IMG/VR virus record: IMGVR_UViG_3300043410_001892
Location: 183,145-247,144 of that record
Direction: 5' to 3' (one strand)
DNA length: 64,000 bases
Source of the DNA: a virus
The notes below the pieces were generated by a model. That model ran no database searches and had not been told where the DNA came from. It worked only from the letters and a program-made list of their open reading frames with translations. The position numbers and the translations under genes were made by a program. Below, one piece after another: positions 25,071-57,300 of this stretch. The first letter of the stretch is position 1. Each line of letters begins with the position of its first letter.

Positions 25071-25099
25071 ATTATAAAGTATTTTAATTATAAAGTCAA
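25071..25099 (-). promoter_or_regulatory. Sigma70-type early promoter (TTGACT-17-TATAAT) upstream of the clpA-like gene
   Basis: Reverse strand reads TTGACT ttataattaaaatactt TATAAT, 34 nt upstream of the ATG. Confidence 0.55.
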
Positions 25100-35211: not shown

Positions 35212-35811
35212 TTATGGTTTTACATATTTTCCAAGATATCGCATAAACACTGTAACCCCGTGATCATTTGACCAGGCTTCTAATACAACGTAAGATTCTT
35301 TACTTACATGCAATGTAGTTGGGAAACTAATGTCTTTAATTACGTACCCGTTATTTTGTGTTGTGAACACAGTAACATCAACACCTGCTGCAATAGTAGG
35401 AACAGTAGTTAAATGAACACGCACTGATGCATATTGTCCTGTAGCAGGCCAATTAACAAATGCTAATGTAGTATCAGAGTTAATAGTTAATGTTAATTGT
35501 TGTGATATTCCTGAATCTAAGTTTACAGTTGCAACGTTTGATGCAATTGATCCAGTGTAGCTTGTACCGTATAATTTGTTAAAATTTCCATTTACAATTG
35601 AACTACCATTGATATCATTTTCAACTGGGTCTTCGTTGCTATCTAATGTACTTTTTAATACTGCTCGATTTTCAAATAATTGAAGTTCGATTTTTGCTTG
35701 ATCTAAAGCTGTTTTGATTCTTAAGAAATTATCACGAAACCCTTGGCTATCGTTATCAACACCTGCGATTGGATAATTAGTAAGAATTGTGTTAGTTATA
35801 ATACTGCTCAT
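35212..35811 (-). CDS. Hypothetical protein, probably structural (199 aa)
   Basis: Co-transcribed with and overlapping the 790-aa structural gene. S/T/N/G-rich. Confidence 0.45.
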   Translation of the reverse strand: MSSIITNTILTNYPIAGVDNDSQGFRDNFLRIKTALDQAKIELQLFENRAVLKSTLDSNEDPVENDINGSSIVNGNFNKLYGTSYTGSIASNVATVNLDSGISQQLTLTINSDTTLAFVNWPATGQYASVRVHLTTVPTIAAGVDVTVFTTQNNGYVIKDISFPTTLHVSKESYVVLEAWSNDHGVTVFMRYLGKYVKP

Positions 35812-38866: not shown

Positions 38867-39409
38867 ATGAAATGGCAAATAGATAAAGAGTTCCATTTTG
38901 AAATGGGGCATAGAGTATGGGCACAAAAATTAGAACATGCTGAGTTAAGTATTACAACTGATTGTGCGTGTAAACATTTACACGGGCATAGTTATGCAAT
39001 TAAAGTGTTTTTAGGATCTGATAGTTTAGATCAATCAGAAATGGTTACTGACTTTAAAAATTTAAACTTTATGAAACAATTTGTAGATGATGTATTAGAT
39101 CATAAGTTTATGATCGATGTTAATGATCCAAACTTCAAATTAATTACAGGTCAAGATTGGGAAAATAATCCAACAACAGATCATCCATTTGCAAACTTTA
39201 TAAACCTTGGTAGTTATAACTGGGTTGGTTTATCAGATGATGAAAAATTACATCTTAATAGTTTTGTATTAGTAGATTTTGTACCAACTAGTGAAAATAT
39301 TTGTAGATATTTGTTTGAATATGCACAATCACGTATTGGTGATTTAGCAAAAGTTACTGCAGTTGAGCTGTGGGAAACAAAGAAAAGTCATTGTAGATAT
39401 ACAGGATAA
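38867..39409 (+). CDS. queD: 6-carboxy-5,6,7,8-tetrahydropterin synthase (QueD/PTPS family)
   Basis: FHFEMGHRV...CACKHLHGHSY (the CxxxHGH zinc site) and DHKFMIDVND are QueD hallmarks. Confidence 0.8.
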   Translation: MKWQIDKEFHFEMGHRVWAQKLEHAELSITTDCACKHLHGHSYAIKVFLGSDSLDQSEMVTDFKNLNFMKQFVDDVLDHKFMIDVNDPNFKLITGQDWENNPTTDHPFANFINLGSYNWVGLSDDEKLHLNSFVLVDFVPTSENICRYLFEYAQSRIGDLAKVTAVELWETKKSHCRYTG

Positions 39410-40115: not shown

Positions 40116-40149
40116 ACTTATATTTACATTAAGATTATAAAAATCTTTT

Positions 40150-40157
40150 GATAAATA
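40150..40157 (+). promoter_or_regulatory. T4-late-like promoter motif GATAAATA upstream of the 12-kb structural gene
   Basis: tGATAAATAttgtaaaacaagcgttcacaaaggggtgtgacataat ATG, 37 nt upstream of the ATG. Confidence 0.4.
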
Positions 40158-40194: not shown

Positions 40195-43100
40195 ATGGCA
40201 AAAAAAATAATTGAAATTGGTGTTCAAGGGAATGACGGTACTGGCGACAGTATACGTGAAGCGTTTAGTAAAGTTAATGATAACTTTAGTGAAATTTATG
40301 CAGTATTTAAGAGTGAGGGTAAAATTAATTTTAGTGATCTATCTGATGGATGTACTTACATCAGTGATCAGCTTATCACCGCAAGTCACGATGGAACTAC
40401 GTTAATTGCAAGAGATTTAGTACCAGGGAATGGTATATTCATATCTGCAACATCGTCGGCTATTACAATTGAAGCACAAGCAGCTTCATTATCAAATGAT
40501 TTAAAACCAGAGATATCAGCACCATTTAATGCTAATAAATTTGCAATTGGTCGTTTGTCGGATCCAAGCGAAGACCTTGTAGATCTTTTTAACTTAGTAT
40601 ACGATATACCAACTACATTAGATGAGTTACCAGTAACTGTGGGATATGCAAATAGACGATATGCACAGTTAACTGAATCAGGTGTTATTGGTGTTTTAGA
40701 AAATGGGGTTATAGTTCCAAGTCCTATACAAACAAGAGCAGAACCTACAACTCCTGATATTACAAACCCATTGTACGATCCAACATTAACTGGTAATTAC
40801 TTGTCAACTGAAGTATTACCACGTAAGGACGTAGTATACCGTGGTGGTGATAAGATGACCGGTGCGTTAATCTTAAATGATCACCCAGGAGCAATGGCTG
40901 GAACAGTTGGTGCAATGTTTGATTCTGATCTACAGGCAGCAACTGCATTTTATGTAGATAACAAAACATTCACAAGTAATGTTAATTTATATGTTTCTGC
41001 GGCATCAGGTGACGATTTGCAACTTAGAACACCTGCAGGGAAAGAAGGTAGATATTGGAATTATGCGTTTAAATCTATCGGTGCTGCATTGTTACATGCT
41101 GAGTCATTGATTAATTTAGCAAGTCAAGAACCTGGTCCTTACAAACAACGTATTTCTTATACACTTGGAGCAGATCAAACATTTTCAACAGTTCAACGTG
41201 TAAGATTAACCGGTGGTGAATCTACAACACCTGGCTATGTTGCTGCATTTAACTTATTACAAGCTAATCGGTCATTTATTCAATCAGAAACAATTTCATA
41301 TATTAATAAAAAGTATGTGAATAAATTTTCTTATAATAAAACACTATTTTCAAACAGAATAGAGTTTTTAATTAAAGCAGTATGTGATGATTTATTGTTA
41401 GGTGCTACTGATCCAGATACATCAGTACCTGGAACAAATTATAGATCAATTCGGTCTGCTGTAAAATATTTACATGATGATCCATATTTAGAGCAATCGA
41501 TTCAATGGTTATCTGCTATTGAGTTTATTAGAAATCAAATTATTGAGTTTACATACGATGGACCTGCATTGCAAGATTATACTACTCAGTTAGTTACTGC
41601 ATTATGCTATGATTTGATTTTTTCTTCAAACTATCAAAGTATTCAAGCTGGTATTGCATTTAAAAATGCCGGAACTAAAGTAAGTGCAGAACAATTAGGT
41701 TCAATGCTTACTATTAAACCTATTAACATTTTATCTGTAACAGTTAACGGTGGTGTTGTAACACTTAATTTCTTAACTCAATCATCGGCATTCTTATTAA
41801 ACAGTGAAATATTAATTGATGCAGTGTTTACAAACGTTGACGATGAAACAAATGAAATCATAATTAAACCGAGTGAAACTGTTAACAATGTTACTACTAT
41901 TACTTCTGTTACTATTGATTCTGCATCAACTGTTTCATCTGTTAGTTTTAGAAAAGGTGGATATCCATTTATTAACGATGGCACATACACTGTAACAGGG
42001 TCGTTTGATCGTAAGAACTTAATTAATCTGTTGTTATTAACACCAGGTATTACAACTTATCCAAGTTCTGCAGTTGATATTACTGCTAATGCTACAATAG
42101 TGCGTGATATAGTGTTAACTGGGACTATCCCAGAACCGGTTATGCCTACACCAAACAATCCACCAGCAGGGTATAATGTTCTTGGTCATGTTCATGCAAA
42201 ATCGTTGTTATTAGATAACATTTCATTTATTCAAGCTGAAGTAGTTGCTTATCTTAGTTCAGAATTCCCAGATGTATCATATAATCGAGAATTATGTTTG
42301 CGAGATGTGAAATATATCATTTGGAGTTTAGCATATGATTTAACATATGGCGGTAATAGTCAAAGTGTATATGCTGGTAAAAAATATTGGAATAATTCAA
42401 CCAACTTTATCATTGCATCTGAAAAAACCGCATGTGTAAGCGTAATTAACTATATCAATACATTGGCTCAAGCAGTCATTATAAACAGTGCGACTACTAC
42501 GACCTATCAACAATCAGTTAGACAGTACAGAAATGATACATTAACTAATGGTAATGTAGCATCAGCATCAATTGCAAGCAATGTTGCTACGATTGCAGCA
42601 ATTGTGACCAGTTTAAGTAATGTTCCTGCTATTATAAATCCAAGTGTTACAACTGGTTTAGCAGAAATGCAAACTATTTTTGATAGAATTACTGCAGATA
42701 TTGGAAATTACACAGATGACACAAAATCTACATCGACAATATGGTATTTAGATAGTTATTTCCCAGTAATTAAGACATTAACTGATAAAGATAAGATTAA
42801 TAACTTGTTTGATCAGATAATATCTATTGTATCCGGTGGTGTTTATCCGTCAGTAGTACCAGTTTATCCAATTGTAACTATTCCAACACCAGTTAACGTA
42901 AATGTTACTGATGCATGGATTGTTCAAGCTACCGGATTGCTTGATCAAACAGCAATTAATACCATTGCACAATCTACAAATTCTTATATTGCGTCAGTTT
43001 ATACAACAATTACCTATAATTCAACTACTTTACAAAATGATATTAAAGATTTGTTGTTTGCAGCAATTTACGATTTAAAATATGGTGGTACATTGGCTAG

Positions 43101-46100
43101 TTTTGATGTTGCAACTACATTTACATTGTTAGGATCTAATGTTAATACTCAAAAAACAATAGTTCAAGCTGCAATTGATCATGCATGGTCTCTTACAAAT
43201 ACTTTATTAGTTGGAAATATAACTGGAGATACTTCAAATCATACAGTTAACAAATTGCGTGAAAAATTCACATTTGCTTCTTCATATTTTAGCAATAATC
43301 CGCCAATACAAGGCGACGATATTACAGTATCATTATTCTCAACTACTACATATGACAATGCTACTAAATTAAGAACCTTAATTTTAAATAGTTTATCTAC
43401 TATTTCAAACGATACCTTAACTTACATTGATTCAGTGTTTAAAGGTGGGTTTACTTATGATGAATCTTTATGTTATAGAGATTTAGGTTTGATTATTGAT
43501 GCAATGTCAATTGATTTAATCACTGGTGGTACATATCAATCTATAAATGCAGGTAAAAGTTTTTATAAAAACTCAAGTGCAAGAGCAGTTTCAATTGGTA
43601 CACAATATACACAGTCATTTGATGGTATAATGTTTGCTCAATCAGTAGCATTGCAAGTATTAAATAAACAACTTAAGAATAGATACCAATTATTACCGCA
43701 AATTACACAATTTGCAACAACAAATCCATCTAATTTAACATATATTAGCACAGGCGAATTACCAACTGATAGTATCGGTGTTACAGGCGATCGTTCATTG
43801 CCAGTTTCTCAAAATGCAATTGACACATTTGTTGCAAACATGTTAAGATTAACTGATATTATACAGTACGGTATAAGCGTTGCAGCAACACCGTCGTTTG
43901 GTTCAGGTATTTGGAATTTATTAATTGACAATGGCGGGAGAGGCTATGTAGATCAAGGTTCTCCGTCAAATAACGACTTATTCCCAGCTAAAGTAATTGT
44001 AGGTGTTGGTACTTCATCTATTGCTGCATCCAATGCGTATGGAAGTATTGTTACATATACATACGGCAGTGATATTTCCGGTGCACCTTTAGTGTTAGGC
44101 GATGTTGATACACTTCAAGTACGGTTAACAAAGCCTGGATTCTTTAAATCTGCTTACACTTTAGTAGATCTTAACTGGTCTTTTGTTGGAACTACTGTTA
44201 CAGTTACTAAAGCTAACCATACAATTACACAAGGTACTCGTATAATTGTAAACTTTGCCCAATTCTTTGGGTCTGGATCTAATGCCCCAATTGGAACTTG
44301 GATTGTATCGGCAGTAACAACTAACACATTTTCATTTGTAACAAGTTTAGCACCAATTGGAACTAGTACATTAATGACTGTAACGGTTCAAGTAGGTGAA
44401 CAAATTGAATTTGGTGAAACTGTTCGTGATTTGCAACTAACAATGTTCATTGAAAGTGGCATTTATTACGAAGATTATCCATTGAGAGTGTCATCAAACA
44501 TATCTATTAAGGGTGACGAGTTCCGTAGAACTATAATTAGACCAAAAGATCGTATTAGTCAAAGCCCATGGCGTAAGATTTTCTTCTATCGTGATGCAAT
44601 TGTTGATGCTTTAGAGGTAGGTTTAATTGATTATACCGGAACTAACTATGCTCCGAGCGGAATTACAGCGTCTTTAGACGGTGTAACTAATAAAATTGTG
44701 GTAACATTGAGCGGTAATTTCCAAGCACCATTGAGTTGGGTTGGTAAAGTGTTTGCTGATACTAATACTACAAACGGAAATGCAAAACGCGGTAAAGCTG
44801 TAGTTGACTCTGTTAGTGGTAATACTATAAATTGTACAGTAATTTACCCATTTAGCGTAAGTGGATTATATGCTGCCGGTAGTTGGAAGCTATTTGGTAC
44901 TATAAATTACGGTCGTCACTACTTAACTAACCCATTAGATGTAACAAGTACGGCTAAAAACAACAAAGATATCGACGTTTTATTATGTAATGAAGGTACA
45001 CGTATTGTTGGTGTAACATTCCAAGGTCATGGCGGGTTTGCTATGGTACTTGATCCAGAAGGAAACATCAAAACTAAGTCACCGTATATTCAAGAATGCG
45101 CAAGTTTCACACAAAGTAACAATTATAAGAGATTTGCAGGTGGACAATACATTGACGGATTTGCAGGAAGACTATACGGTAACATCATAGGTGTTTCTAA
45201 TGACGGTATTACTGTAACTGTACAAGGTGAAACTAATAGTGGTTTAGATATTAGACCTCCACAACCACCATGTTCGTTCTATGTACGTGGAAAACGTTAT
45301 CAAATTGATGATATTGTAAGTTTTGATGCAACTACTGCAACTGTAGTATTAACATTGGATAAAACTACACCGTATTTACATACAACATCTGGTGTTTTAA
45401 CATACGACGATGTTAAAGCAAAACGTGATATCGGTTATGTTTTGGATGCAATTGCAAGCGATGCTGCATTAGGTACAACATATCGTTCAGTACATGCTGG
45501 TCGTTCTTTCTTAAAAATATATTCTAGTCGTTTAGTGGGAGATTTACAAGATCTTACTATTGCAGGTATTAATAAAGCATTAGAATTGTCAAATACAACA
45601 CTTAGCGGTAGTACATATTCAAGTATTAGAACTCAATATGCCACTAATATTGCTATTATTACTTCTATGATTTCAAATGGAGTTAATGCAACACCAACTA
45701 TTGTATGGTCTACTAGTTCAACAGCTGATGATAACTTAGCTCGTAATATTATTCAAAACAATAAAGCATTTATTAAGTCAGAAATTAGTGCATATATCGC
45801 ACAATACTTTACTTTAGGTGATTACCCAAGATACAATGTATTAACAAGTGAACGAGATGTTGGTTATGTACTTGACGCTATGACATATGACATGTTCTAT
45901 GGTGGTGATAGTCAAACAAAAGATAGTGCAGAAGCATTCTTTTACAATAATACATCGTATATACCTGATGAAAATGTAATTTGTTCAGCTGCGTATACCA
46001 GATTAAAAGCTGTATTAGCTGCTGTAGTTGCGGGATCACCAGTTGTTGTAAGTTCAGGTAACAGTGTTTCACAAATACTAACAAATCCGCCAGCATCATC

Positions 46101-49100
46101 AGCCGGTTATGTTACTAAATTAAACACACTGAGCGACATTGTTATTGATTATATTGCAGACGGTAGTTATAGTTCACCAAGAACAAGTGCTCGTACATAT
46201 CCATTGTTACCAGTAGGTACAACTGGAACTACAGCTTATAACTTATTCTTTGATACCGGAACAAATCCAGCTACTAAAACAACTGCTGAAACTACTATTG
46301 AAACTTCTGTATCAACTTTCTTAAAAAATGGTGCAAACTTAAGAATTAATATTGAAGCTGGCGGTAACCGTTCAATGTTAGGTAACGATTTTGCTATGTT
46401 TAATGATTTAGCATATGGTATTTTAGCTACTAATGGTGCATTTACTGAACAAGTATGTACATTCACATATTATGCGCATACCGGGCTTTGGGCAAACAAT
46501 GGTAGTAACTTACGTGGTGTAGGATGTTCAAATACATTTGGTAACTACGGTATGAGAGCATCCGGTTATGACGTTACTGAATTACCAGATAGTACAAATC
46601 TTGCTAATCATATGATTCAAACTGCTCGAGTATATAAGCAAGGCATAGTTGCAAACGAAATGATTCCAACCGCAACTGTTCCGGCTATTGCAGTGTGGAT
46701 CATTGGGTATGATTATATTCCAACTAATGGTTCAATTATGGAAATTAATCATTCTGTTAATAGTGGAACTATCAATAGTTACACTGTAACATCGGCAGAA
46801 TATACTACTATACAATTTGCAAATCAAACTGTTCTTAAATTAAATTTAAACACAACTGACACAGGTTCTGGATCAGGTTTATCAAAAGAATTGTACGATG
46901 GACAAATGGTTTCTATTAGATCACTTAAAAATGTTAAGTTTAATAATGTTGATAATGTTAAACCAACAAGACCGTCAACTGCGTTACAATATGTTGATAA
47001 TTTAAATGATGTATATCGTATCATTGCTTACAATTTAACAGAATCAACTGGTGATATGTTAGGTGATAACATTGCAATATTACAAAGTGATAACTCATTT
47101 GCATATTACAATTTTACAACTGATCCTAAATCAATAATAATAGGTGATCCTGATTCAAGTATCTATACTACTGTAGCATTAAACGGAGGCGCAACTACTA
47201 GTACATCATTAACTGTTACAAGTGCAACAGGTATTTTACAAGGTCACATAATTAGTGGTGTTGGCTTTACTGGACAGATAATTACTAACATTAACGGTAA
47301 TGTTCTTACATTAAGTTCAGCACCAAATGCCACACCATATGGCACTGTGTATTTTTCATTCAAAACACAAGGTTCTAAAGTAGGTGATACTAAAATTGCA
47401 GTTGATCAAGTTTCTCAATTAAGAATAATAGATCAAATTAACAAAGGCACTTATATTACAGCATGGAATGGTAGATTACATCGTGTATTGAGATATGTAA
47501 CTCCAACATTTGCAGTGTCTAAAACTTATGCATCTTACAACAGTGGTACTTCTACAATGGTAGTAACTGGTTCAGCAGGATCGATTACTGCTGGTATGTT
47601 AGTTATTAAACGAAATGCAACAACCGAAGCACTTGAATTTACCGGTACTGTAGTGTCGGCAACTGTAGTAGGTCTTACAACAGAAGTTGTGATATCAACT
47701 CCAAATCAAGTAGTAACTCCGTTAACTCAAGGCCCTGTAACATTTGGTGTAACTGCAAACGGTTATATTGAACTATCACCAAATGCATTTATAAACAATG
47801 CTGCTAATGGTGTTTCTGTTAATGCAATGACTTATCTAAGTTCAGACTTCCAAGTTGATAGTATTACTGCTAAAGTAGTAACTTTTGATATACCATTTAG
47901 TAAAGATAATTTATTACCAAAAGTTGATAGTTATCTAACATTTGCAGGCAACTCAAATGCAAGTTATAATGGCGAATATCAAATAACCAGGGTAATAAAT
48001 CAAACATTAGTAACATTGTCAACTATTACTGATTTTGTAGTAGGTATGGTTGTAACTTCACAAGTAACTACACAATTTATTACAAACTCAGGCGGTGTTT
48101 CAACATTTACATCAACTGCAAATCATAACATGGTATTAAATGATCCAGTAACAGTAAATGTTTCAAGTAATATGAATGGTCTTGTTCAAAGCACTACGTA
48201 TTATGTTAAAACAATTCCAACTTCAACATCGTTTACATTAAGTGCGACATCAGGCGGTACTGCATTAGGTAATTTTGGTATTGTTGTATCAGCTGGGGTT
48301 GTGATTATTTCGATAGCAACTAATTTAGGTGTATCAACGTTTACAACAAACACATCACATGGTTTAGTTTCTGGTAATACATTTGCACCAAATATCAGTA
48401 CAAACAGTTTTGTTGCTGGAACTACCTATTATGTTAAAGATGTAACATCAAATACGTTTACATTAAGTGCAACATCAGGTGGTTTAGCGTTAGGAAACTT
48501 TGGAACTACTAATGTAATTTCATCGTCAGTATCATTTAAAACTCCACAGACTGCTATTATACCCGGCGGTAGTGCAATTATTCAATCTGTTTCATCTGAT
48601 CCATTAGTTAAAACAATTGTAATCAGTCCTGCAGCATGGGTTCCTGCAAACTCGCCAATTAGAGCATCGTTAGCTGCAAGTGTAATGAGTATTTCAATTA
48701 CATCAGGTGGTTCAGGATATACATCTGCACCATCTTTAACAATTGAAGGTGGTTCTCCAACTCAACGAGCAACTGCAACTTGTACAATTGTTAACGGTGA
48801 GATTAATGAAGTTCGTGTAATTATTAAAGGTAGTGGATATGTTTCTATACCGTCAGTTACAGTTACACCTGCGGTTGGTAATATTCCAACTTCAACTGCT
48901 GTATTATCTGTAAACTTATCAACTGCTGTATTGCGTGATGCTACTTCAACAACTGGTGTGTCTACAATACAGATGTCTGCATTGTATCCAACAGATCCAG
49001 GTACATTTGGAACTGTTACATCGATTACAGTATCTGCTGAAACTACAACTACTACTACATATAATTCAGTTAGTGGTTATTCAATGGCTTATACAGTATC

Positions 49101-52100
49101 ATCAGGATCTACAAAACCTGCAAATGATACTTGGTGCAAGGTTGAAGGTAATAGTAATGCGTTGTATAATGGATTTTTCCAAGTTATTTCAACTGCAAGC
49201 ACTACAATTACATTATTTTCTCCATTAAATCCAGGAATTTATGGAACTGGTACTACAACTATTACTTCTACTCCTACAAACGGAACAAGTACAAGTTTAG
49301 GTATTAGTAAACCATTTAGTACTAAAGATGGATACACATTTAACATTGGTTATGCCGCAAATACATTTGCTCAAGTAACAACACGCATTAGTACATGTCG
49401 TGCTACTGGACATGACTTCTGTGATATTGGGACAGGTGGATATAGTACAACAAATATTCCATATTCAATCTATGGTGAGCCTGCATTAAGTCGTCAAGTT
49501 TCACATGAAACATTAGATGAAAGTGTAGGACGTTGTTTCTATGTATCAACTAACCAAGATGGTATATTTAGAGTAGGTAAATTCTTCTCAGTAGACCAAG
49601 GTACAGGTGTTGTAACACTTAGTTCAAAGACTGCATTGTCAAATATTGAAGCATTTGGATTTAGTGGCGGCGGTGCTGTTGTAAATGAATTTTCAACAGA
49701 CTCAACATTAACTGATAACTCCTCTAATAAAGTACCAGTTGAAAGTGCAGTACGTGGATATATTGATAAACGGTTAGGCATTGATCATGGTGGTTCTCCA
49801 TTACCGTTCTTGTCAATTATTGGACCAGGATTTGTTCCATTAAATGGTTCAGCAAAAATGACAGGAGATTTGGTATTAGGTGGAAATGGTATTACAGGTG
49901 TTAGATCTCCAATTTCATCGTCTGATGTAGTAACTAAAGGTTATTTAGAGCAATCATTATTAGCACACAATTCATTAAATGAACTCGATGATGTAACATT
50001 AACTACTCCAAGTAACGGACAATCAATATTTTATGATTCAGTATCAGCTAAATGGAGAAATGCTGTATTCTCAGGAGATGTTTCAGTTTTAGTTCGCCCA
50101 TCGACTACACTTGACAATGTTATTGTTAGTAGAGGAACAGCATCTGGTATTGATAGTGAGTTTACATGTGATGCAAATGTTGGATTGTTTGTTGGACAAC
50201 AAGTTACATTCTCTGGGACATATTCTGGTTCTGGGTTAATAAATGGTTATACTAATCCATCTACATATTTTATTATTGCAACTAATGGAACTACAACTTT
50301 CCAACTTTCAACTGTAAAAGGTGGTGTTGCTGTTACTGCTACTGCAGGTACATTAGGTTTAACTGTAACGGTTCCGTTGATGTCAATTGCAATAGGTAGT
50401 GGAAGAATTGTTAATAGTATGATTAGTTCTGCTGCTAAAATTGATCAAAGTAAATTATCTTTGAATTTAGCAGGTACATCAACTACTACAGGCGGAACAT
50501 TAGGTGTAGCAAGTTTCAGTAGTTATCAATTTAGTGTTGATGCTAACGGTTGGGTAACATTAGCTAATTCATCATCAGAAACAACCGGAACAACATTAAC
50601 TAAATTGCAGCATGTTCCAGCTAAAACTGTATTGAGTAACTTAACCGATGGTTCTACAAATGTTGTTGCAAATTCTGCATCTGAGGTAGTTAGAGTTGGT
50701 GAAGGTATACAACTTGGGTCGTTTACATCAGTTGGTGTTATGACAGTTACTTCAGTTTTAAATTCAAAACCAACTGGATTTGCTGTCGTTGGTATTACAA
50801 CAACAGGTGAAGGGTCAAAAATTGTTAAAACTGGTACATCAGGTGGTATTGATGTTGCTGAATTATTAATTGATGGTTATTCTGTTCTTGATGTTGATGC
50901 AACACCTGTAGGTGGAGCTGCTTCAGCAATTGTACAGTTTAAGACACCAGGTAACTACACATTCTTAACTGCAACAGGTAACAACACAGTTAATAACCCA
51001 AGTGTTATTAGTGTTGCCGGAACATTAGATGTTACTGGTACTAATAGTTCAATAAAATGTTCATCTTTATCAACCGGTAGCACAGGTACAGAAGGTACAT
51101 TAACTGGAGCTTGGAAATTAGCATCAGGTAGTTCGTTAGACTTTTCAGCAGGTTTTGTAACATCTTCGTCTGCAGGGTTAACATCGAGTGATTTAAATAC
51201 AATAACAAGACCAGCATTGATATTAGATTTTGCAAATAGTAAAACACTTGATCCTCGTATTTCGTTTACTCGTAATTCAATTGGAACATATACTAATGCA
51301 CAAGGTTTATTAGTAACTGCAAGCGTTCATCAAGCAAGATTTGATTTTAATCCAACAACTGGTGTATCAAAAGGTTTGTTAATTGAAGAACAAAGAACTA
51401 ATGTGTTATGTGGATCTGCATCATTTGCAATATCAGGCGGAACTAACCAATGGGTTGATAGCAGTATTTCAAGAGGGGTAGGATCAACTTCACCTGCAGG
51501 AACAGCTACTATTACATTTACTGCATCGGCAGGAAATGCAACAATTATAAGTAACGCAGTTGCATCGGGTACTTCATACAGAACTTTTTCAATATGGTTA
51601 AAAAGAGAAGCAGGTACAGGTGATATTCAATATACATTAAATAACGGTGCTACTTGGACTACACAGGCGATTACAAGTACATTAACACGTTATAGTTGGT
51701 CTGCTTCAGTTACTAATGCAAGTGTTGGTATTAGAATTGTAACATCAGGTAATTCAATTACAATGTGGGGAGCTCAGTTAGAAGATGGAGCATTTGCAAC
51801 ATCTTACATTCCGACTACAACTGCTGCAGTTATAAGAAGAGCAGATGTTGCAATCGTAAATGGAACTAATTTTTCAAGATGGTATAGACAAGCCGAAGGA
51901 ACATTTGTATTAACACATGCTGCATTAGGCATTGATGCTGTTGCAAATTCATATAATGGTGTTAAAGTTCAATCTACTGATTTAACTGCGTCTATGGAAA
52001 TACGATGCGGGTCAACTGGTACAGGTTTATTGTATGATGTAAAAGGTTTAACTAATACTGGTACTACTCAGTTTGATTTTATTGGATATTCAACATTAAC

Positions 52101-52320
52101 AGTAAATACTCCAGTTATGCAAGCATTTGGTTATAAGGCAAATGATTGTGCATATAGTGTAAATGGTGATGTTGCAGAAGAAGATACTGTAGCAACTATT
52201 CCAACTACAATTGCTGAAATGGTAATCGGAGGCGCAGGCGCACAATATATCGAAAGAATTGCGTATTATCCACGTAGGTTAACTAACTTGGAAATTCGTT
52301 CACTCACATCAACTCTATAA
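40195..52320 (+). CDS. Giant (4041 aa) fibre-like virion structural protein
   Basis: Single uninterrupted 12,126-nt ORF. N-terminus GNDGTGDSIREAFSKVNDNFSEIY resembles conserved tail-fibre N-terminal anchor segments. S/T/N/G/V-rich beta-type composition throughout. Confidence 0.85.
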   Translation: MAKKIIEIGVQGNDGTGDSIREAFSKVNDNFSEIYAVFKSEGKINFSDLSDGCTYISDQLITASHDGTTLIARDLVPGNGIFISATSSAITIEAQAASLSNDLKPEISAPFNANKFAIGRLSDPSEDLVDLFNLVYDIPTTLDELPVTVGYANRRYAQLTESGVIGVLENGVIVPSPIQTRAEPTTPDITNPLYDPTLTGNYLSTEVLPRKDVVYRGGDKMTGALILNDHPGAMAGTVGAMFDSDLQAATAFYVDNKTFTSNVNLYVSAASGDDLQLRTPAGKEGRYWNYAFKSIGAALLHAESLINLASQEPGPYKQRISYTLGADQTFSTVQRVRLTGGESTTPGYVAAFNLLQANRSFIQSETISYINKKYVNKFSYNKTLFSNRIEFLIKAVCDDLLLGATDPDTSVPGTNYRSIRSAVKYLHDDPYLEQSIQWLSAIEFIRNQIIEFTYDGPALQDYTTQLVTALCYDLIFSSNYQSIQAGIAFKNAGTKVSAEQLGSMLTIKPINILSVTVNGGVVTLNFLTQSSAFLLNSEILIDAVFTNVDDETNEIIIKPSETVNNVTTITSVTIDSASTVSSVSFRKGGYPFINDGTYTVTGSFDRKNLINLLLLTPGITTYPSSAVDITANATIVRDIVLTGTIPEPVMPTPNNPPAGYNVLGHVHAKSLLLDNISFIQAEVVAYLSSEFPDVSYNRELCLRDVKYIIWSLAYDLTYGGNSQSVYAGKKYWNNSTNFIIASEKTACVSVINYINTLAQAVIINSATTTTYQQSVRQYRNDTLTNGNVASASIASNVATIAAIVTSLSNVPAIINPSVTTGLAEMQTIFDRITADIGNYTDDTKSTSTIWYLDSYFPVIKTLTDKDKINNLFDQIISIVSGGVYPSVVPVYPIVTIPTPVNVNVTDAWIVQATGLLDQTAINTIAQSTNSYIASVYTTITYNSTTLQNDIKDLLFAAIYDLKYGGTLASFDVATTFTLLGSNVNTQKTIVQAAIDHAWSLTNTLLVGNITGDTSNHTVNKLREKFTFASSYFSNNPPIQGDDITVSLFSTTTYDNATKLRTLILNSLSTISNDTLTYIDSVFKGGFTYDESLCYRDLGLIIDAMSIDLITGGTYQSINAGKSFYKNSSARAVSIGTQYTQSFDGIMFAQSVALQVLNKQLKNRYQLLPQITQFATTNPSNLTYISTGELPTDSIGVTGDRSLPVSQNAIDTFVANMLRLTDIIQYGISVAATPSFGSGIWNLLIDNGGRGYVDQGSPSNNDLFPAKVIVGVGTSSIAASNAYGSIVTYTYGSDISGAPLVLGDVDTLQVRLTKPGFFKSAYTLVDLNWSFVGTTVTVTKANHTITQGTRIIVNFAQFFGSGSNAPIGTWIVSAVTTNTFSFVTSLAPIGTSTLMTVTVQVGEQIEFGETVRDLQLTMFIESGIYYEDYPLRVSSNISIKGDEFRRTIIRPKDRISQSPWRKIFFYRDAIVDALEVGLIDYTGTNYAPSGITASLDGVTNKIVVTLSGNFQAPLSWVGKVFADTNTTNGNAKRGKAVVDSVSGNTINCTVIYPFSVSGLYAAGSWKLFGTINYGRHYLTNPLDVTSTAKNNKDIDVLLCNEGTRIVGVTFQGHGGFAMVLDPEGNIKTKSPYIQECASFTQSNNYKRFAGGQYIDGFAGRLYGNIIGVSNDGITVTVQGETNSGLDIRPPQPPCSFYVRGKRYQIDDIVSFDATTATVVLTLDKTTPYLHTTSGVLTYDDVKAKRDIGYVLDAIASDAALGTTYRSVHAGRSFLKIYSSRLVGDLQDLTIAGINKALELSNTTLSGSTYSSIRTQYATNIAIITSMISNGVNATPTIVWSTSSTADDNLARNIIQNNKAFIKSEISAYIAQYFTLGDYPRYNVLTSERDVGYVLDAMTYDMFYGGDSQTKDSAEAFFYNNTSYIPDENVICSAAYTRLKAVLAAVVAGSPVVVSSGNSVSQILTNPPASSAGYVTKLNTLSDIVIDYIADGSYSSPRTSARTYPLLPVGTTGTTAYNLFFDTGTNPATKTTAETTIETSVSTFLKNGANLRINIEAGGNRSMLGNDFAMFNDLAYGILATNGAFTEQVCTFTYYAHTGLWANNGSNLRGVGCSNTFGNYGMRASGYDVTELPDSTNLANHMIQTARVYKQGIVANEMIPTATVPAIAVWIIGYDYIPTNGSIMEINHSVNSGTINSYTVTSAEYTTIQFANQTVLKLNLNTTDTGSGSGLSKELYDGQMVSIRSLKNVKFNNVDNVKPTRPSTALQYVDNLNDVYRIIAYNLTESTGDMLGDNIAILQSDNSFAYYNFTTDPKSIIIGDPDSSIYTTVALNGGATTSTSLTVTSATGILQGHIISGVGFTGQIITNINGNVLTLSSAPNATPYGTVYFSFKTQGSKVGDTKIAVDQVSQLRIIDQINKGTYITAWNGRLHRVLRYVTPTFAVSKTYASYNSGTSTMVVTGSAGSITAGMLVIKRNATTEALEFTGTVVSATVVGLTTEVVISTPNQVVTPLTQGPVTFGVTANGYIELSPNAFINNAANGVSVNAMTYLSSDFQVDSITAKVVTFDIPFSKDNLLPKVDSYLTFAGNSNASYNGEYQITRVINQTLVTLSTITDFVVGMVVTSQVTTQFITNSGGVSTFTSTANHNMVLNDPVTVNVSSNMNGLVQSTTYYVKTIPTSTSFTLSATSGGTALGNFGIVVSAGVVIISIATNLGVSTFTTNTSHGLVSGNTFAPNISTNSFVAGTTYYVKDVTSNTFTLSATSGGLALGNFGTTNVISSSVSFKTPQTAIIPGGSAIIQSVSSDPLVKTIVISPAAWVPANSPIRASLAASVMSISITSGGSGYTSAPSLTIEGGSPTQRATATCTIVNGEINEVRVIIKGSGYVSIPSVTVTPAVGNIPTSTAVLSVNLSTAVLRDATSTTGVSTIQMSALYPTDPGTFGTVTSITVSAETTTTTTYNSVSGYSMAYTVSSGSTKPANDTWCKVEGNSNALYNGFFQVISTASTTITLFSPLNPGIYGTGTTTITSTPTNGTSTSLGISKPFSTKDGYTFNIGYAANTFAQVTTRISTCRATGHDFCDIGTGGYSTTNIPYSIYGEPALSRQVSHETLDESVGRCFYVSTNQDGIFRVGKFFSVDQGTGVVTLSSKTALSNIEAFGFSGGGAVVNEFSTDSTLTDNSSNKVPVESAVRGYIDKRLGIDHGGSPLPFLSIIGPGFVPLNGSAKMTGDLVLGGNGITGVRSPISSSDVVTKGYLEQSLLAHNSLNELDDVTLTTPSNGQSIFYDSVSAKWRNAVFSGDVSVLVRPSTTLDNVIVSRGTASGIDSEFTCDANVGLFVGQQVTFSGTYSGSGLINGYTNPSTYFIIATNGTTTFQLSTVKGGVAVTATAGTLGLTVTVPLMSIAIGSGRIVNSMISSAAKIDQSKLSLNLAGTSTTTGGTLGVASFSSYQFSVDANGWVTLANSSSETTGTTLTKLQHVPAKTVLSNLTDGSTNVVANSASEVVRVGEGIQLGSFTSVGVMTVTSVLNSKPTGFAVVGITTTGEGSKIVKTGTSGGIDVAELLIDGYSVLDVDATPVGGAASAIVQFKTPGNYTFLTATGNNTVNNPSVISVAGTLDVTGTNSSIKCSSLSTGSTGTEGTLTGAWKLASGSSLDFSAGFVTSSSAGLTSSDLNTITRPALILDFANSKTLDPRISFTRNSIGTYTNAQGLLVTASVHQARFDFNPTTGVSKGLLIEEQRTNVLCGSASFAISGGTNQWVDSSISRGVGSTSPAGTATITFTASAGNATIISNAVASGTSYRTFSIWLKREAGTGDIQYTLNNGATWTTQAITSTLTRYSWSASVTNASVGIRIVTSGNSITMWGAQLEDGAFATSYIPTTTAAVIRRADVAIVNGTNFSRWYRQAEGTFVLTHAALGIDAVANSYNGVKVQSTDLTASMEIRCGSTGTGLLYDVKGLTNTGTTQFDFIGYSTLTVNTPVMQAFGYKANDCAYSVNGDVAEEDTVATIPTTIAEMVIGGAGAQYIERIAYYPRRLTNLEIRSLTSTL

Positions 52321-52330
52321 GGAATAAACA

Positions 52331-54382
52331 ATGAGTAGTTTTATAGGTAATAAACCAAATCAAGTACCAACAAATGGTGATCTGGGAAGATTAGCATTTA
52401 TGGATTTTATAGGCATGGAGGACATTGGGTCCTCCATCCCAACTATTGTATCTGCATCTAACATTTATCCACAAGTAAAGATATCTTATGTTAGTGGAAC
52501 TGTTACAATTGATACAATAACTCCTCCTCAGGATTTAATAAATGGTGGACAAATAACGTTAATACCAACTGGAGTATTTGCATTAAGCACTTCTGGAAAT
52601 ATTGCACTTGCAATCAACTCTGAAATTTCAAAAGCAATTATTTTGACATATGATTCAGTTGTTGCAAAATGGTATCCAAGTTATACTAATACAGTTAATA
52701 ATTTAACACTAAATGGTACTGCAAATTCTACTATTACACTTGGAACAGGTGGTACCGTTGCATACACAAAAGATAAATTATCAGTATTTGCGCAAACAAC
52801 TGCATCAGAATTTGCCAGTGTTATTTCAGATGGATCAACCGGTTCCGGTAAAATAGTATTGGCAACAAGTCCAACATTAGTAACACCTGTATTAGGTGCT
52901 GCAACTGCAACTTCGATTAATAAAATTGCACTTACTGCAGTGGCTACTGGATCTACAATTACACTTGCAGATCAAAAAACATTAACCGTAAATAACACCG
53001 TAACACTTACTGGTACTGATGCATCAACCATTACATTTGGGACAGGCGGTACCGTTACTTATACATCTAATAAATTATCAGTATTTGCTGCAACAACTTC
53101 ATCTGAATTAGCTGGTGTTATTTCAGATGAAACTGGATCTGGTTTATTAGTGTTTAATACAAGTCCAACATTAGTAACACCTGCATTAGGTGCTGCAACT
53201 GCAACTTCAATTAATAAAATTGCACTTACTGCGGTAGCTACTGGGTCTACAATTACACTTGCAGATCAAAAAACATTAACTGTAAATAATACAGTAACAC
53301 TTACTGGTACTGATGCATCAACCATTACATTTGGGACAGGCGGTACAGTTGCATATACATCTAATAAATTATCAGTATTTGCTGCAACAAGCTCATCTGA
53401 ATTAGCCGGTGTTATTTCAGATGAAACTGGATTTAGTACAACTGGTTTACTGATGTTTAATAACAATCCAACAGTAGTTACTGGAATAGTTGCTGATGCA
53501 GCATCAACTACATTTAATTTAATCAATACTGTTTCAACAACGGTAAATGCATTTGGTGCAGCAACAACATTAAATGTTGGATATACTGGTACAGGTGTAG
53601 CATCAACTACAAATATTTCAACAGGAGCATTAGCTGGATCATTTATTAAAACAGTTAACTTAGGAACCGGCGCTGCTTCTGGATCAACTACTAATATTAA
53701 TATTGGTTCAAATATTGCCGGAACTACAGCAATTAATAGTCCAACTATTTCTACATTAAGTGCTACTCTTGATTTATTTACAACAACTGTTGGAACTGTT
53801 AATTTTGGTAGTGTAGCCACTACTATGGGTATAGGATATACTGGTACTGCAGCATCTACACTTAATATTTCAACAGGCGCAGTTACAACTGGTACAACAA
53901 AAACAATCAATATAGGAACAGGTGGAGCTGCAAGTTCTACTACAACTATGAATATTGGAACAAGTGCAGGCGCATCTAATGTAACAATTGGGTCAACTGT
54001 ATCTGGTACAACTACTGTTAATTACAATTTAGATGTATTGCAGAACATTACAGCTCGTCAAAATGTTACAGCATATTTTAGTTCTGATAGAAGATTAAAA
54101 GAAAACATCACACCTATTGAAAACCCATTAGATAAGTTGTTAACATTATCAGGAAATACATTTAAGTGGTCTGATGAATACTATGCAACACAAAATCAAG
54201 AAATGGTTAAACAATATGATGTTGGGGTTATTGCTCAAGAAGTATTAGAAGTATTGCCAGAAGCAGTACATGAGCGTGATTCTGGAATGTTAGCAGTTGA
54301 TTATACAAAATTAATACCATTATTAATTGAATGTATTAAGGCTCAACAAAAACAGATTGATAATTTATTAGCAAAGGAGTAA
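52331..54382 (+). CDS. Tail fibre protein with C-terminal peptidase-S74 intramolecular chaperone domain
   Basis: C-terminus SSDRRLKENITPIENPLDKLLTLSGNTFKWSDE...VGVIAQEVLEVLPEAV...MLAVDYTKLIPLL matches the autoproteolytic chaperone domain of endosialidase/tail-fibre proteins. Internal ~98-aa tandem repeats. Confidence 0.85.
   Translation: MSSFIGNKPNQVPTNGDLGRLAFMDFIGMEDIGSSIPTIVSASNIYPQVKISYVSGTVTIDTITPPQDLINGGQITLIPTGVFALSTSGNIALAINSEISKAIILTYDSVVAKWYPSYTNTVNNLTLNGTANSTITLGTGGTVAYTKDKLSVFAQTTASEFASVISDGSTGSGKIVLATSPTLVTPVLGAATATSINKIALTAVATGSTITLADQKTLTVNNTVTLTGTDASTITFGTGGTVTYTSNKLSVFAATTSSELAGVISDETGSGLLVFNTSPTLVTPALGAATATSINKIALTAVATGSTITLADQKTLTVNNTVTLTGTDASTITFGTGGTVAYTSNKLSVFAATSSSELAGVISDETGFSTTGLLMFNNNPTVVTGIVADAASTTFNLINTVSTTVNAFGAATTLNVGYTGTGVASTTNISTGALAGSFIKTVNLGTGAASGSTTNINIGSNIAGTTAINSPTISTLSATLDLFTTTVGTVNFGSVATTMGIGYTGTAASTLNISTGAVTTGTTKTINIGTGGAASSTTTMNIGTSAGASNVTIGSTVSGTTTVNYNLDVLQNITARQNVTAYFSSDRRLKENITPIENPLDKLLTLSGNTFKWSDEYYATQNQEMVKQYDVGVIAQEVLEVLPEAVHERDSGMLAVDYTKLIPLLIECIKAQQKQIDNLLAKE
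52730..53470. repeat. ~294-bp tandem duplication (about 2.5 copies, >90% identity between the two full copies) inside the tail-fibre gene
   Basis: Copies start at 52877 and 53171 (ttagtaacacctg[t/c]attaggtgctgcaactgcaacttc...). A partial earlier copy ends near 52876. Confidence 0.8.
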
Positions 54383-54385
54383 TAC

Positions 54386-57300
54386 ATGACACTACCATTA
54401 AGCAATAATGCTATATCAATGGGACAAGTTAACACTGAATTAAACTTAGCAGCCAATGCACAAATATCATTAAATGATCCTGCAGTTCGTACATTACTTG
54501 CAAAAACAGGTGATAAGACAACCATTTCGTTAGCAGACGGTTGGGGTAAATCTAACATTGGAGCTGTAACAAATCTTGCAGTTACAAATGGATCAGTTAC
54601 TGTTATGTCAGCTACTGTTACATGGACTACACCTGCAACAGGAACTATAACAAAATATGAAATTTATGCAAAAGATGCAAATAATGTAGTTAAAGGTTTA
54701 ATAACAATTAATGCACCATTTTCTCCAATACCAACATCTGCAACAGTAACTGGTATGGCGTCAAATACTGCATATACCATTTATGTTACTACGTCAAACA
54801 CATCGTCAAGTGCAACTGCAAGTGCAACTGTTCCGGTAACAACATTAGCATACAACTTCCCATTTACTACAGTTTCCAATGTAAATCCAAATACAGTTAC
54901 ATCATCAACTGTGGTTTCAGTTGGTGGATTACCAGTAAATCAAATTGTTACAGTTTCGGTCTCAGGTAGTGCTGGCGCACAATTTGCTGCAGCAAGCACA
55001 CAAGCTGGTGCAACTTCATTTACGTCAACTTCTGGATTATACACAGCATCATCAAGTGGTATATTATATGTTGCTGCTCGAGTCACTTCAGGAACATTTT
55101 TAGCTGATGCAACTGCAACTGTTACAGTTGGTGATGGCAGTAGTACATTCACTGCAACTACACGAGCAGCTGATATATCTCCATCAAACACAGTGCCAAT
55201 TATAATTCCAGCAAAAATAGATGTTCCTATCAATTCAGCAGTAACGTCAGAACAGTTTACAATTACTGGATTAGAACCAAATTATACTGGATTAGTAATT
55301 AGTGCATCGGCTGGCGCAACATTTGTTGCAGGTCCAACTAGTGGATCGTTACCGTCAGTTTATGTAAATTCTGGGACATTTACAGTTGGCGCAGACACTA
55401 ACATTTATATTAAAGCAAGAGTAACATCGAGCTCATTATTTGGAGCTGATGTAACTGGAACTTATACTATTGGATCAGGTACAGCCACATTTAAAGCTAC
55501 AACAACTTCAAATGCATTTACTATTCCTGCAAAAACTGGACAGGCAATTAATACATTAATTACTTCAGATTCAATACTTGTTACTGGTCTTGAATATTCT
55601 ACAAGTTATCAAGTATCAGTTGCAAATGGGTCTGGTTCTACAGGTGCAGCTTATGAAGCAGTTACTGGTACAGGTACGTTAACAGGAACATTTACATCAT
55701 CTACTACATCAGTAACATCATCTGCTGTAGGTGAAATAAGAGTACAAGTAAGAGTTCAATCAAGTACACAAGGTTCTACAACAACTAGTGCTACATTATC
55801 AATTGGATCTTATAAGTCAGGTACATTTAGTGTAACAACACCAGTTCCTGATACAAGTCCAACATTTGGATCAACTTTTGCAGCTATTACAAACGTTCCG
55901 TTAGGTTCGTTAATTTTAGCAGCAGAATCTCCAATAACAGTAACCAGTTTAGAACCAAATTATAATATTCCAGTTAGTGTTACTGGTGGGTATTATTATA
56001 TATCATCATCAACATTTACACCAGGTAATGTAACATTTATTAATACCGACTCAACAGTTACAACACCGACCGGTACATTGTATCTTGGTCTTAAAGCATC
56101 TGCTAACTCGTCTTCGTTTTTAACTGATTCGACTGCAACTGTAACTATAGGTTCGGGATCAACTTCGTTTAAAGTTACAACTACAACAGGAACATTTTCA
56201 TTTACAACAGCTTCAAATCTTAATATAAGCACATCTTCAACTTCAAATGTTATAGCAGTAAATGGTTTACCATATCCGGGTACTGTTACAGTTAGTATAC
56301 CAAACGCTGATGCTAAAGTTGATGCAGGTACAACAACATCAATGAGCGGAACATATGAGTTTATTAAGAGTAATGTTTCTACTGTACAAGACGGAACTGG
56401 CGGTAAGGTTTATTTAGCAATCCGAGGAACATCGAGTGATTTATTCTCAACTACCGTTACATATACTGCCAGCATAGCATACACGCAAGGAACAAAATCT
56501 GGTACTTATAGTATTGGAACAAGAGCAGCAGTTACACAACCATCGACTCAATTTACATTTACAGATTTAACTGGACAGGCAAGATCTTCAACAATTACAT
56601 CTAGTCAGATTTCAATTACTGTAGAACCTAATTATACTCACACTATCACTGCTACTACAAATACTGGTACAACTGTAGGAGTTGATGCAGGTACAACTAC
56701 ATCAATGAGTGGTTCTTATGGTACATCAAAATCAGTAACAACTGATGGAACTGGTGTAATTTATATAACGGCATCGGTACAAACAGGTACTGCATATTCG
56801 ACTGCATATAATTGTACAATAACCGTTGGCACAATGTCTGATACTTTTACAGCAACAACTCTTGTACAGATTATTATTCCAGGATCAATCACATTGGGAT
56901 TTAGTGGCACTACATCAAGTTCAACTACAATGACTATTTCAGCTGGAAGCGGAAGTGCACCTGATTCATATTATTATGAAAGATACACAGATGCTGCATA
57001 TACTGCTAATAAGTTTACTGGAACAAGTCAAAGTTCAAATAGTTTTTCAGTTAGCTTACCAAGTTCAAACACTACTTATTATATTAAAGGTTTTGCAACT
57101 AATACTGCAGGAACAGGTTCAGGAACAGGTTCAGTTACATCAGCTGCAGCAGCACCAACAAGTGCTTCGATAGCATTTTCGTCAATTGCTGAAACATCTG
57201 CAACATTAACTGTTACATCGACTGGTGCAACAACATGGGGTTATCAGCAATATACTGATGCAAATTATAATGTAGCAGTCGGAAGTACTGTATCAAGTAA

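Follow-up and report, generated by a model that had tools for sequence, protein, structure and literature searches.

A 4041-residue putative fibre protein of a jumbo myovirus-type phage with repeated phycobiliprotein-like modules

Introduction

Among the closest described counterparts of the protein analysed here are the baseplate proteins gp9 and gp10 of phage T4, of which the N-terminal parts fasten trimers to the baseplate wedge, and the giant fibres of cyanomyoviruses, with genes for proteins of up to 6076 residues; a giant fibre gene as such is therefore not new. The gene studied here lies in a stretch of 64,000 nucleotides from a virus (IMG/VR record IMGVR_UViG_3300043410_001892, positions 183,145 to 247,144), referred to as the window, and consists of a single open reading frame (ORF) for a protein of 4041 amino acids (aa). 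From the analysis described below we conclude (estimated probability about 0.7) that a jumbo myovirus-type phage builds this giant protein into its virion as a structural component, most likely as a homotrimeric fibre attached at the baseplate periphery. It contains six modules which, on the basis of predicted fold and sequence motif, are homologous to cyanobacterial phycobiliproteins.

The giant fibre of Syn9, gp101 (YP_717768.1; 60762-78992; 6076 aa; annotated as 'virion structural protein, putative fiber'), and related cyanomyovirus giants (PHROGs 701, 4527, 5342 and 18802) resemble the window protein in giant size, fibre annotation and the presence of a phycobiliprotein-like module, and gp101 adjoins genes for gp10-like and gp8-like baseplate proteins. 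Nevertheless, the sequence similarity of these giants is local, amounting to ~30% at the level of the modules, without collinearity; matches cover 3-36% of the query, and there is no nucleotide match to the window gene. Moreover, Syn9 gp101 has two degenerate modules, which read CKTD and CKDD, and differs in its N-terminus and in the phage backbone to which it belongs. Another comparison is offered by CBA120 TSP4 and RaK2 gp528, the anchors of branched complexes, which likewise combine a large first protein, an N-terminal baseplate anchor, a beta-helix body and adjoining fibre genes. By DNA polymerase, the present phage is closest to the jumbo-phage group of which RaK2 is a member, but no sequence similarity was found between the giant protein and either of these anchors. 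Phycobiliproteins themselves (C-phycocyanin alpha, phycoerythrin beta and the bilin-binding domain of ApcE) share with the modules a globin-like fold over ~150 residues and the helix-E signature C-x-R-D-[IV]-G-Y-x-L...Y-x-L-x-x-G-G, in register with Cys84. The phage modules differ from them in being repeats embedded in a virion fibre, in having only 10-20% identity and, as far as the window's own modules are concerned, in scoring under the Pfam thresholds.

Results

A conserved giant gene

40195..52320, plus strand: giant fibre gene, a single uninterrupted ORF with ATG start, 4041 aa

A preliminary description of the window had reported a single uninterrupted ORF of 12.1 kb, and this is confirmed. 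With the base composition of the window (A 0.30, C 0.18, G 0.17, T 0.35) about one codon in 15 is expected to be a stop, and the chance of 4041 stop-free codons is ~1e-123. An identical 4041-aa protein (P0192) is present in the public JGI/IMG protein collection on two contigs, the longer of which measures 372,173 bp. A scan of IMG/VR revealed 20 loci with relatives of the first 1000 aa, at 37-54% identity; complete, intact and collinear homologues of 3243-4190 aa are found in eight independent metagenomic contigs, while a ninth homologue is open-ended and comprises at least 4366 aa. For the closer homologue pairs the ratio of nonsynonymous to synonymous substitution rates (dN/dS) is 0.097 and 0.101, over 3700-4000 codons. 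As shown by the intact homologues in separate assemblies, by the two contigs that encode an identical protein and by the dN/dS of ~0.1, the giant ORF is a genuine and conserved gene, with purifying selection acting over its whole extent. The same evidence removes the worry, expressed in the preliminary description, that the ORF is an assembly artefact, and refutes its interpretation as an assembly or annotation artefact or as a decaying pseudogene, to which we attach a practically negligible probability.

The giant gene has a nucleotide match to none of 50,697 phage records. Module 4 and the beta-helix core (see below) have no relative in 185,579 bacterial and archaeal species genomes (two scans), which fits a strictly viral, non-prophage distribution. 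The DNA polymerase of the window shows 43-49% identity with its counterparts in Sinorhizobium phage Phosso, Agrobacterium phage Atu_ph07 and RaK2/121Q-like Escherichia coli jumbo phages, and PhoH and one more window gene are closest to PA5oct-like Pseudomonas jumbo phages. On the basis of these similarities and of the 372-kb contig, the source is assigned to the PA5oct/RaK2/Atu_ph07-type assemblage of jumbo myoviruses. The related contigs are metagenomic throughout, which suggests an aquatic origin.

Phycobiliprotein-like modules

41227..41694, plus strand: module 1 (aa 345-500), C-x-R-D motif degenerate; hhalign 98% to other modules, and Foldseek
42157..42624, plus strand: module 2 (aa 655-810), motif C701-L-R-D
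42892..43329, plus strand: module 3 (aa 900-1045), motif degenerate (LQND)
43342..43809, plus strand: module 4 (aa 1050-1205), motif C1093-Y-R-D
45397..46329, plus strand: modules 5 (aa 1735-1840, AKRD) and 6 (aa 1845-2045, SERD), inserted in the beta-helix

The six modules comprise ~150 aa each and together make up about a quarter of the protein. Self-BLAST of the giant protein reveals no repeats; these are visible only by profile-profile comparison, in which hhalign finds the six modules mutually homologous with a probability of 97-99.7% and E-values of 1e-10 to 3e-27. A structural similarity search with Foldseek matches the predicted modules to phycobiliproteins with a probability of 1.00 and template modelling (TM) scores, relative to the target, of 0.62-0.69. 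In an independent AlphaFold2 (AF2) model of aa 1-520, which includes module 1, phycobiliproteins are again the top matches (probability 1.00, TM(target) 0.53-0.67), and the phycobiliprotein fold is thus recovered in two independent models. The preliminary description had proposed structure prediction in segments, and AF2 and Foldseek indeed yield both a beta-helix and helical modules, neither of which had been noticed in that earlier reading. Its characterisation of the protein as monotonous and beta-rich holds for the composition, which is rich in S, T, G and V (T 12.6, S 10.6, G 8.5 and V 8.2%), but not for the six modules, about 900-1000 aa that are predicted to be all-alpha.

The consensus of 54 modules reads '..FIqaEtiaYi...y.....Yn...C.RDvgyIldA..YDl.yGGN'. 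When a profile of these 54 modules was compared with all sequences in the Protein Data Bank (PDB), 19 matches were obtained at E<=10 (best 0.033), all of them to phycocyanin alpha. The module segment 'tCkRDvgyildAvayDlvyGGn' aligns to phycocyanin-alpha residues 81-104, and since this alignment is in register, the module cysteine falls on Cys84 and the Arg-Asp pair on Arg86-Asp87. In phycocyanin alpha, Cys84 serves as the attachment site of the bilin, and Arg86 and Asp87 are in contact with it. Of the six modules of the window protein, numbers 2 and 4 keep the complete C-x-R-D motif; only R-D is left in numbers 5 and 6, and the motif is degenerate in numbers 1 and 3. In module 4 the Cys, Arg and Asp residues are invariant in all nine of the homologues compared.

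PF00502 (Phycobilisome protein) is the only Pfam family with multiple modules among its matches: 8 of the 54 find it at E<=10, the best with 2.3e-5. Window modules 2, 4 and 6, scanned alone, have no Pfam match at E<=1, and these three consequently lie outside PF00502 in the Pfam sense. Module 3 of the homologue L008 scores 21.3 bits, below the gathering cutoff of 22.2, and P0259, a multi-module relative, scores 45.9 bits. Taken together, the predicted fold and the in-register motif identify the six modules as homologues of cyanobacterial phycobiliproteins, with the same predicted fold.

Architecture of the giant protein

40195..40476, plus strand: aa 1-94, T4 gp9/gp10-type baseplate-anchor segment (matches to PF07880, PHROGs and T4 gp10)
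40807..41214, plus strand: aa 205-340, fibre 'collar' motif (RGGDKMTGALIL...DLQAATAFYVDN), followed by a putative beta-helix N-terminal cap (NLYVSAASGDD...GRYWNYAFKSIGAALLHAE), as read from the sequence
44434..45357, plus strand: aa 1414-1721, predicted body of a right-handed parallel beta-helix (AF2 and Foldseek)
46342..47094, plus strand: aa 2050-2300, predicted C-terminal part of the beta-helix (NRSMLGNDFAMFNDLAYG...SNTFGNYGMRASG) (AF2 and Foldseek)
47095..49284, plus strand: aa 2301-3030, beta-rich region with repeated small domains, partly variable (motif scan, hhalign)
49297..49794, plus strand: aa 3035-3200, conserved 'RATGHDF..GTGGY...GRxFYVSTDQDGxFRVG' domain (homologue coverage)
49807..51156, plus strand: aa 3205-3654, second collar motif (LNGSAKMTGDLVL...VVTKGYLEQ) and distal shaft, variable (motif scan, homologue alignment)
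51157..52317, plus strand: aa 3655-4041, lectin-like receptor-binding domain (phmmer, PHROG)

The tail-fibre-type N-terminus noted in the preliminary description is conserved indeed: its motif GNDGTGDSIREAFSKVNDNFSEIY is near-invariant among the homologues, and the segment can now be recognised as an anchor of the T4 gp9/gp10 type. When aa 1-150 are scanned alone, PF07880 is matched at aa 3-42 with 29.0 bits (gathering cutoff 25), and a scan of aa 1-400 gives 27.3 bits; only such sub-sequences score, as a Pfam scan of the entire 4041 aa yields no match, PF07880 included. Residues 1-94 match phrog_677 (gp9-like 'baseplate wedge tail fiber connector') with an E-value of 4.6e-12, and phrog_958 (gp10-like wedge subunit) and phrog_967 match the N-terminal segment as well. 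A profile of nine full-length homologues finds residues 2-53 of T4 gp10 (5hx2_G, E-value 3.6e-4) and, weakly, gp9 (1pdp_A, E-value 0.77). In the AF2 model the N-terminus consists of a helix (residues 15-37) and a small beta domain (residues 59-94). An N-terminal segment of this kind is common to gp9 and gp10 of T4.

The collar and cap region, aa 205-340, is among the most conserved blocks of the protein (identity 0.59-0.64, with many invariant columns), and the most conserved block of all is aa 1414-1721; identity over the beta-helix within the family is 60-71%. The C-terminal part of the beta-helix, aa 2050-2300, is conserved at 0.48-0.57 and is matched by tail-fibre genes of pelagiphages and cyanophages. 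In an AF2 model based on an alignment of 37 sequences, with a mean predicted local distance difference test (pLDDT) score of 70.8, the beta-rich segments aa 1414-1721 and 2050-2300 match right-handed parallel beta-helices. Foldseek finds GH110 alpha-galactosidases (E-value 8e-7); together with these galactosidases, the closest solved structures comprise pectate lyases, alginate lyases and depolymerases of phages, at an identity of 6-14%. According to these models, the conserved core of the protein is a beta-helix of the pectate-lyase/tailspike type, split by two large insertions which jointly hold the six domains of predicted phycobiliprotein fold.

Following the beta-helix, sub-blocks of aa 2301-3030 are related to each other with hhalign probabilities of 78-96%. 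Two tandem 'TTYYVK...FTLSATSGG' units lie at about aa 2667-2800, and aa 2600-2800 form an indel-rich zone. The 'ATGHDF' domain (aa 3035-3200) has the deepest homologue coverage of the protein and matches phrog_9851; no sequence relative of it is present in the PDB. Tail-fibre proteins of cyanophages, among them P-SSM2 PSSM2_301 and S-CAM3 gp161, carry this domain C-terminally and share the 'ATGHDF...DQDG.FRVG' pattern with the window protein; the array proteins described below end in it as well.

The C-terminal domain is related to the RcGTA head spike fibre Rcc01080 (6tb9_F3; phmmer E-value 4.6e-6) and to phrog_5939 'tail protein' (E-value 2e-60), with the 'tail protein' of cyanophages S-CAM4 and ACG-2014j showing 34% identity. 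Rcc01080 binds capsular polysaccharide (PMC10218006). The lectin-like domain is the common element, but here it sits on a fibre of 3650 aa instead of a short head spike, and identities to Rcc01080 and the phrog_5939 proteins are about 25-34%. The last ~800 aa of the giant protein are the least conserved among the homologues, most of which end in a different domain ('YADLAExY...GVVTTxPA...'). Since most homologues carry a different C-terminus, the variation follows the pattern expected of exchangeable receptor-binding ends. The variable C-terminal 800 aa and the presence of a lectin-like domain related to a capsule-binding fibre both fit the earlier suggestion that the protein is a candidate host-range determinant.

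Distribution of the module

A homologue search with the 54-module profile gave three matches. A profile search of 1.84 billion representative proteins identified 1296 module-bearing proteins at E<=1e-3, each standing for a cluster at 50% identity, and 485 at E<=1e-30. The top matches are giant tandem arrays: 36 module stretches were matched in a protein of 6382 aa, 35 in one of 5984 aa and 31 in one of 4799 aa. All ten members that were looked up are either named 'hypothetical protein' or nameless. The array proteins that were read have in common a beta-helix at the start and a terminal 'ASGHTFEWVGAG...TSTDQNGDFKIG' domain. A set of metagenomic proteins of 2700-6382 aa (P0160-P0180) consists almost wholly of 14-36 tandem modules, located between a small beta-helix and an end domain that reads 'ASGHTFEWVGAG...TDQNGDFKIG', and shows at least three N-terminal types. 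A smaller array protein, P0225 (969 aa), is rich in cysteine and contains eight C-x-R-D motifs.

In 28 proteins of the family, helix E was located by a pattern that is independent of the cysteine and of the Arg-Asp pair. Among the 426 motif matches, the cysteine is in place in 378 (89%) and R-D in 368 (86%), and the helix-E cysteines account for 31-100% of all cysteines in these proteins. A tblastn search with module 2 among the 50,697 phage records gave hits in 184 of them at E<=0.01, all from cyanophages (Synechococcus 148, Cyanophage 27, Prochlorococcus 8, 'Marine' 1); the genes concerned carry the annotation 'virion structural protein' or 'tail fiber protein'. Cultured phages with the module include Syn9, S-SKS1, DSL-LC03 and S-ShM2. 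No description of phycobiliprotein-like domains in phage proteins was found in the literature, with most subscription journals outside the coverage. What is new here is a large unannotated family of phage proteins with a repeated domain homologous to phycobiliproteins, in which the pigment-attachment cysteine and the two bilin-contacting residues are almost always kept.

The window protein also has much shorter relatives. A search with aa 1380-2400 gave 58 proteins, mostly of 1500-1780 aa, many of which have an N-terminal PF07880 domain; relatives of ~1600 aa have zero to two modules. One of them, P0005 (1676 aa), aligns collinearly with residues 1-2152 of the window protein and has fewer helical modules. 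Another, P0029 (1635 aa), is encoded on a 291-kb contig with a QueD-like (PTPS) gene upstream, three large ORFs following it and a MazG-like (PRA-PH) gene further downstream, which is the same neighbourhood as in the window. Because the short relatives have the same ends, the same conserved blocks and the same genomic position, the giant gene is an ordinary fibre gene of this phage lineage that was enlarged by insertion and duplication of modules.

The fibre block and its surroundings

52331..54382, plus strand: gene 2, 683 aa, tail fibre with C-terminal intramolecular chaperone domain, 10 nt past the giant ORF
54386..59752, plus strand: gene 3, 1788 aa, Ser/Thr-rich FN3/Ig-like repeats and glycine-rich C-terminal domain, 3 nt past gene 2
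40120..40157, plus strand: conserved non-coding element TATTTACATTAAGATTATAAAAATCTTTTGATAAATA, 38 nt within a divergent intergenic region of 79 nt, a candidate gene-specific promoter or regulatory site

The giant gene is followed directly by two genes, with which it forms a block of 19.56 kb (40195-59752). Shine-Dalgarno-like sequences (AGGA/AAGGAG) precede both of them, and the end of the block at 59752 abuts a convergent gene. Gene 2 encodes a Peptidase_S74 domain (PF13884, E-value 7e-16, aa 585-647), matches many tail-fibre PHROGs and finds the long tail fibre distal subunit 6f45_A with an E-value of 4e-6. In gene 3 an fn3 domain (PF00041) is recognised at aa 60-149, while searches of PHROGs and the PDB with this protein gave no match; we infer a fibre role from its position and composition. 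The earlier claim of two further fibre genes downstream, spanning 19.5 kb in all, is therefore upheld with respect to the span, the short gaps and the identity of gene 2, whereas for gene 3 the role is an assignment by context. The glycine-rich C-terminal domain of gene 3, which contains runs of 7-8 glycines and has no database match, falls in a segment (58000-59752) with a GC content of 0.418, compared with a window mean of ~0.34.

The 38-nt element is near-identical upstream of the homologous giant genes in loci L002, L003, L004 and L008, where the proteins are 40-54% identical, and it occurs once in the window. It may be a promoter. The preliminary description had the gene driven by a late promoter, which is not borne out: the T4-type late motif TATAAATA occurs three times in the window, always on the minus strand, against 12.5 occurrences expected by chance, it is absent upstream of the giant ORF, and the 38-nt element is not a canonical TATAAATA. 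A scan for sigma-70 promoters found fewer sites in the window than in shuffled sequence, and the window contains no tRNA genes.

The block forms a plus-strand island in a region that is otherwise transcribed from the minus strand and encodes DNA polymerase B, a clamp loader, a ligase, MazG, QueD, QueE and a Lon-like protease; QueD itself is on the plus strand, just upstream of the block. A set of 7-deazaguanine (queuosine-precursor) genes is located at 582-1424, 2111-2842 and 7451-9109 (all minus strand) and at 38867-39409 (plus strand). PHROGs support the QueE-like and QueD-like members, whereas an ORF resembling GTP cyclohydrolase I and another resembling TGT/DpdA (motif GDSGGFQ) were identified only by visual inspection. 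This gene set suggests a phage DNA with 7-deazaguanine modification. Proteostasis functions are represented at 22757-25036, 25096-25947 and 33688-34071 (all minus strand) by a Lon-like ATP-dependent protease (phrog_4871, E-value 1e-245) and, by eye only, a J-domain protein and a GroES-like ORF. On the opposite strand, shortly before the block begins, a 790-aa protein with an Ig-like He_PIG domain (E-value 3.8e-18) is encoded at 35808-38180, followed by an ORF of 199 aa at 35212-35811; the two are possibly further adhesin or structural genes. By eye, the 199-aa ORF resembles the gp9/gp10 N-terminus, but BLAST gave no support for this resemblance.

In 15 of the 19 related loci with a readable start (L005-L007 and L009-L020) the giant gene lies directly after a gene whose product ends in ...CGCGSSFGV*, by eye the C-terminus of an IscA/HesB-like Fe-S protein. 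In L021 (8373-9900) the short homologue is preceded by genes of SufC-like and SufBD-like type, and SOD and UvdE are encoded in the vicinity. Through the ...CGCGSSFGV* neighbour and the Suf-like neighbours in L021, Fe-S assembly genes are linked to the giant fibre gene.

Discussion

That the window encodes a fibre-like protein, as the preliminary description had proposed, is supported by the gp9/gp10-type anchor, the conserved homologues and the lectin-like C-terminal domain. Several observations weigh against a fibre of the baseplate. The similarity to gp9 and gp10 spans only the first ~40-95 residues of a protein which is 7-14 times longer than these, has its own receptor-binding end and contains no recognised XD-type domains. 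The 50 top Foldseek matches of the aa 1-520 model are phycobiliproteins and globins only, without gp9 or gp10, and confidence in the models is moderate (pLDDT 66.9 for aa 1-520 and 70.8 for the model from 37 aligned sequences). In addition, the gene is located among genes for replication and nucleotide metabolism, outside any baseplate cluster, and no homologue of gp6, gp7 or gp25 is present within the window, which covers 64 kb of a genome of roughly 372 kb. The location outside a baseplate cluster would also agree with a fibre that decorates the head or neck, and for the C-terminal domain the sole relative of known structure comes from a head-spike fibre. However, the likeness to RcGTA is restricted to the receptor-binding domain, the N-terminus belongs to the baseplate gp9/gp10 family, and the Syn9 relatives adjoin baseplate genes, which makes a head or neck fibre improbable. 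Alternatively, the protein could be mainly an enzyme, a virion-borne, tailspike-like polysaccharide depolymerase rather than a passive long fibre, as its best-conserved part is the predicted beta-helix with nearest neighbours among GH110 enzymes, pectate and alginate lyases and phage depolymerases. Yet the identity to these enzymes is as low as 6-14% and the same fold also serves in non-catalytic adhesins. We consider a mainly enzymatic function rather unlikely, and it would be compatible with the fibre interpretation instead of excluding it.

If the giant protein is a baseplate fibre, its N-terminus would dock a trimer on a gp7-like wedge protein, the modelled beta-helix would bind, and perhaps cleave, host surface polysaccharide, and the distal domain would make the specific receptor contact and so set the host range. 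The two downstream genes would be co-transcribed with the giant gene, and their products may be bound to its protein or form fibres of their own. By analogy with CBA120 TSP4 or RaK2 gp528, a branched arrangement is possible.

The function of the modules can be viewed in two ways. They may be pigment-free structural spacers, in which a globin-like fold derived from the host provides rigid knobs that lengthen or stiffen the fibre, and the Cys-Arg-Asp motif serves fold stability. Virion proteins are usually assembled without cofactors, module numbers vary as one would expect of spacer repeats, with 0-2 in the relatives of 1600 aa and up to 36 elsewhere, and the motif has decayed in four of the six modules here and also in Syn9. 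On the other hand, fold stability alone hardly explains why modules that are otherwise ~20% identical retain the cysteine in 89% of cases together with two bilin-contacting residues, and we rate the spacer function at somewhat less than even odds. The modules could instead be chromophorylated, with the cysteine in thioether linkage to a bilin, either autocatalytically as in ApcE or by means of a lyase, so that the fibre would be pigmented and possibly light-responsive. Such a function would be in line with the register of the motif with Cys84-Arg86-Asp87, its retention in the 28 family proteins and its invariance in module 4 of nine homologues. Among cultured phages the module is limited to cyanophages, whose hosts make bilins, and cyanophages often carry ho1, pebS, pcyA and cpeT. 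Furthermore, light-dependent adsorption has been documented for cyanomyoviruses, without an explanation (PMC2984593). Against pigmentation, the cysteine is kept in just two of the six modules of the window protein, the modules of Syn9 gp101 lack the Arg, and the window's own modules reach no PF00502 score in Pfam. Scans of 30 window ORFs with PHROGs or Pfam revealed no bilin-synthesis or lyase gene, and the phage has a backbone like that of PA5oct, RaK2 and Atu_ph07-type phages of Proteobacteria. Chromophorylation of the modules is thus a tentative proposal, less probable than the spacer function. Equally speculative is its extension to the family, that giant fibres of aquatic phages carry 2-36 phycobiliprotein homologues which are covalently loaded with bilin and render the adsorption apparatus pigmented and light-responsive.

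If the modules do bind bilin, phage particles would possess a photoreceptor or pigment of their own, and two puzzles would become testable, namely the need for light in the adsorption of some cyanophages and the reason why cyanophages encode bilin-synthesis and lyase-like genes. Bilin loading would provide a molecular basis for the former and, for phage-encoded bilin synthesis and CpeT-like genes, a substrate on the phage side; the window protein would then be a partly decayed member of the family, with modules 2 and 4 still competent. If no bilin is bound, the family would still be a clear case of a host light-harvesting fold that has been captured and multiplied as a building block of virion fibres, and the module would serve as a practical marker for receptor-binding proteins of the cyanophage type in metagenomes.

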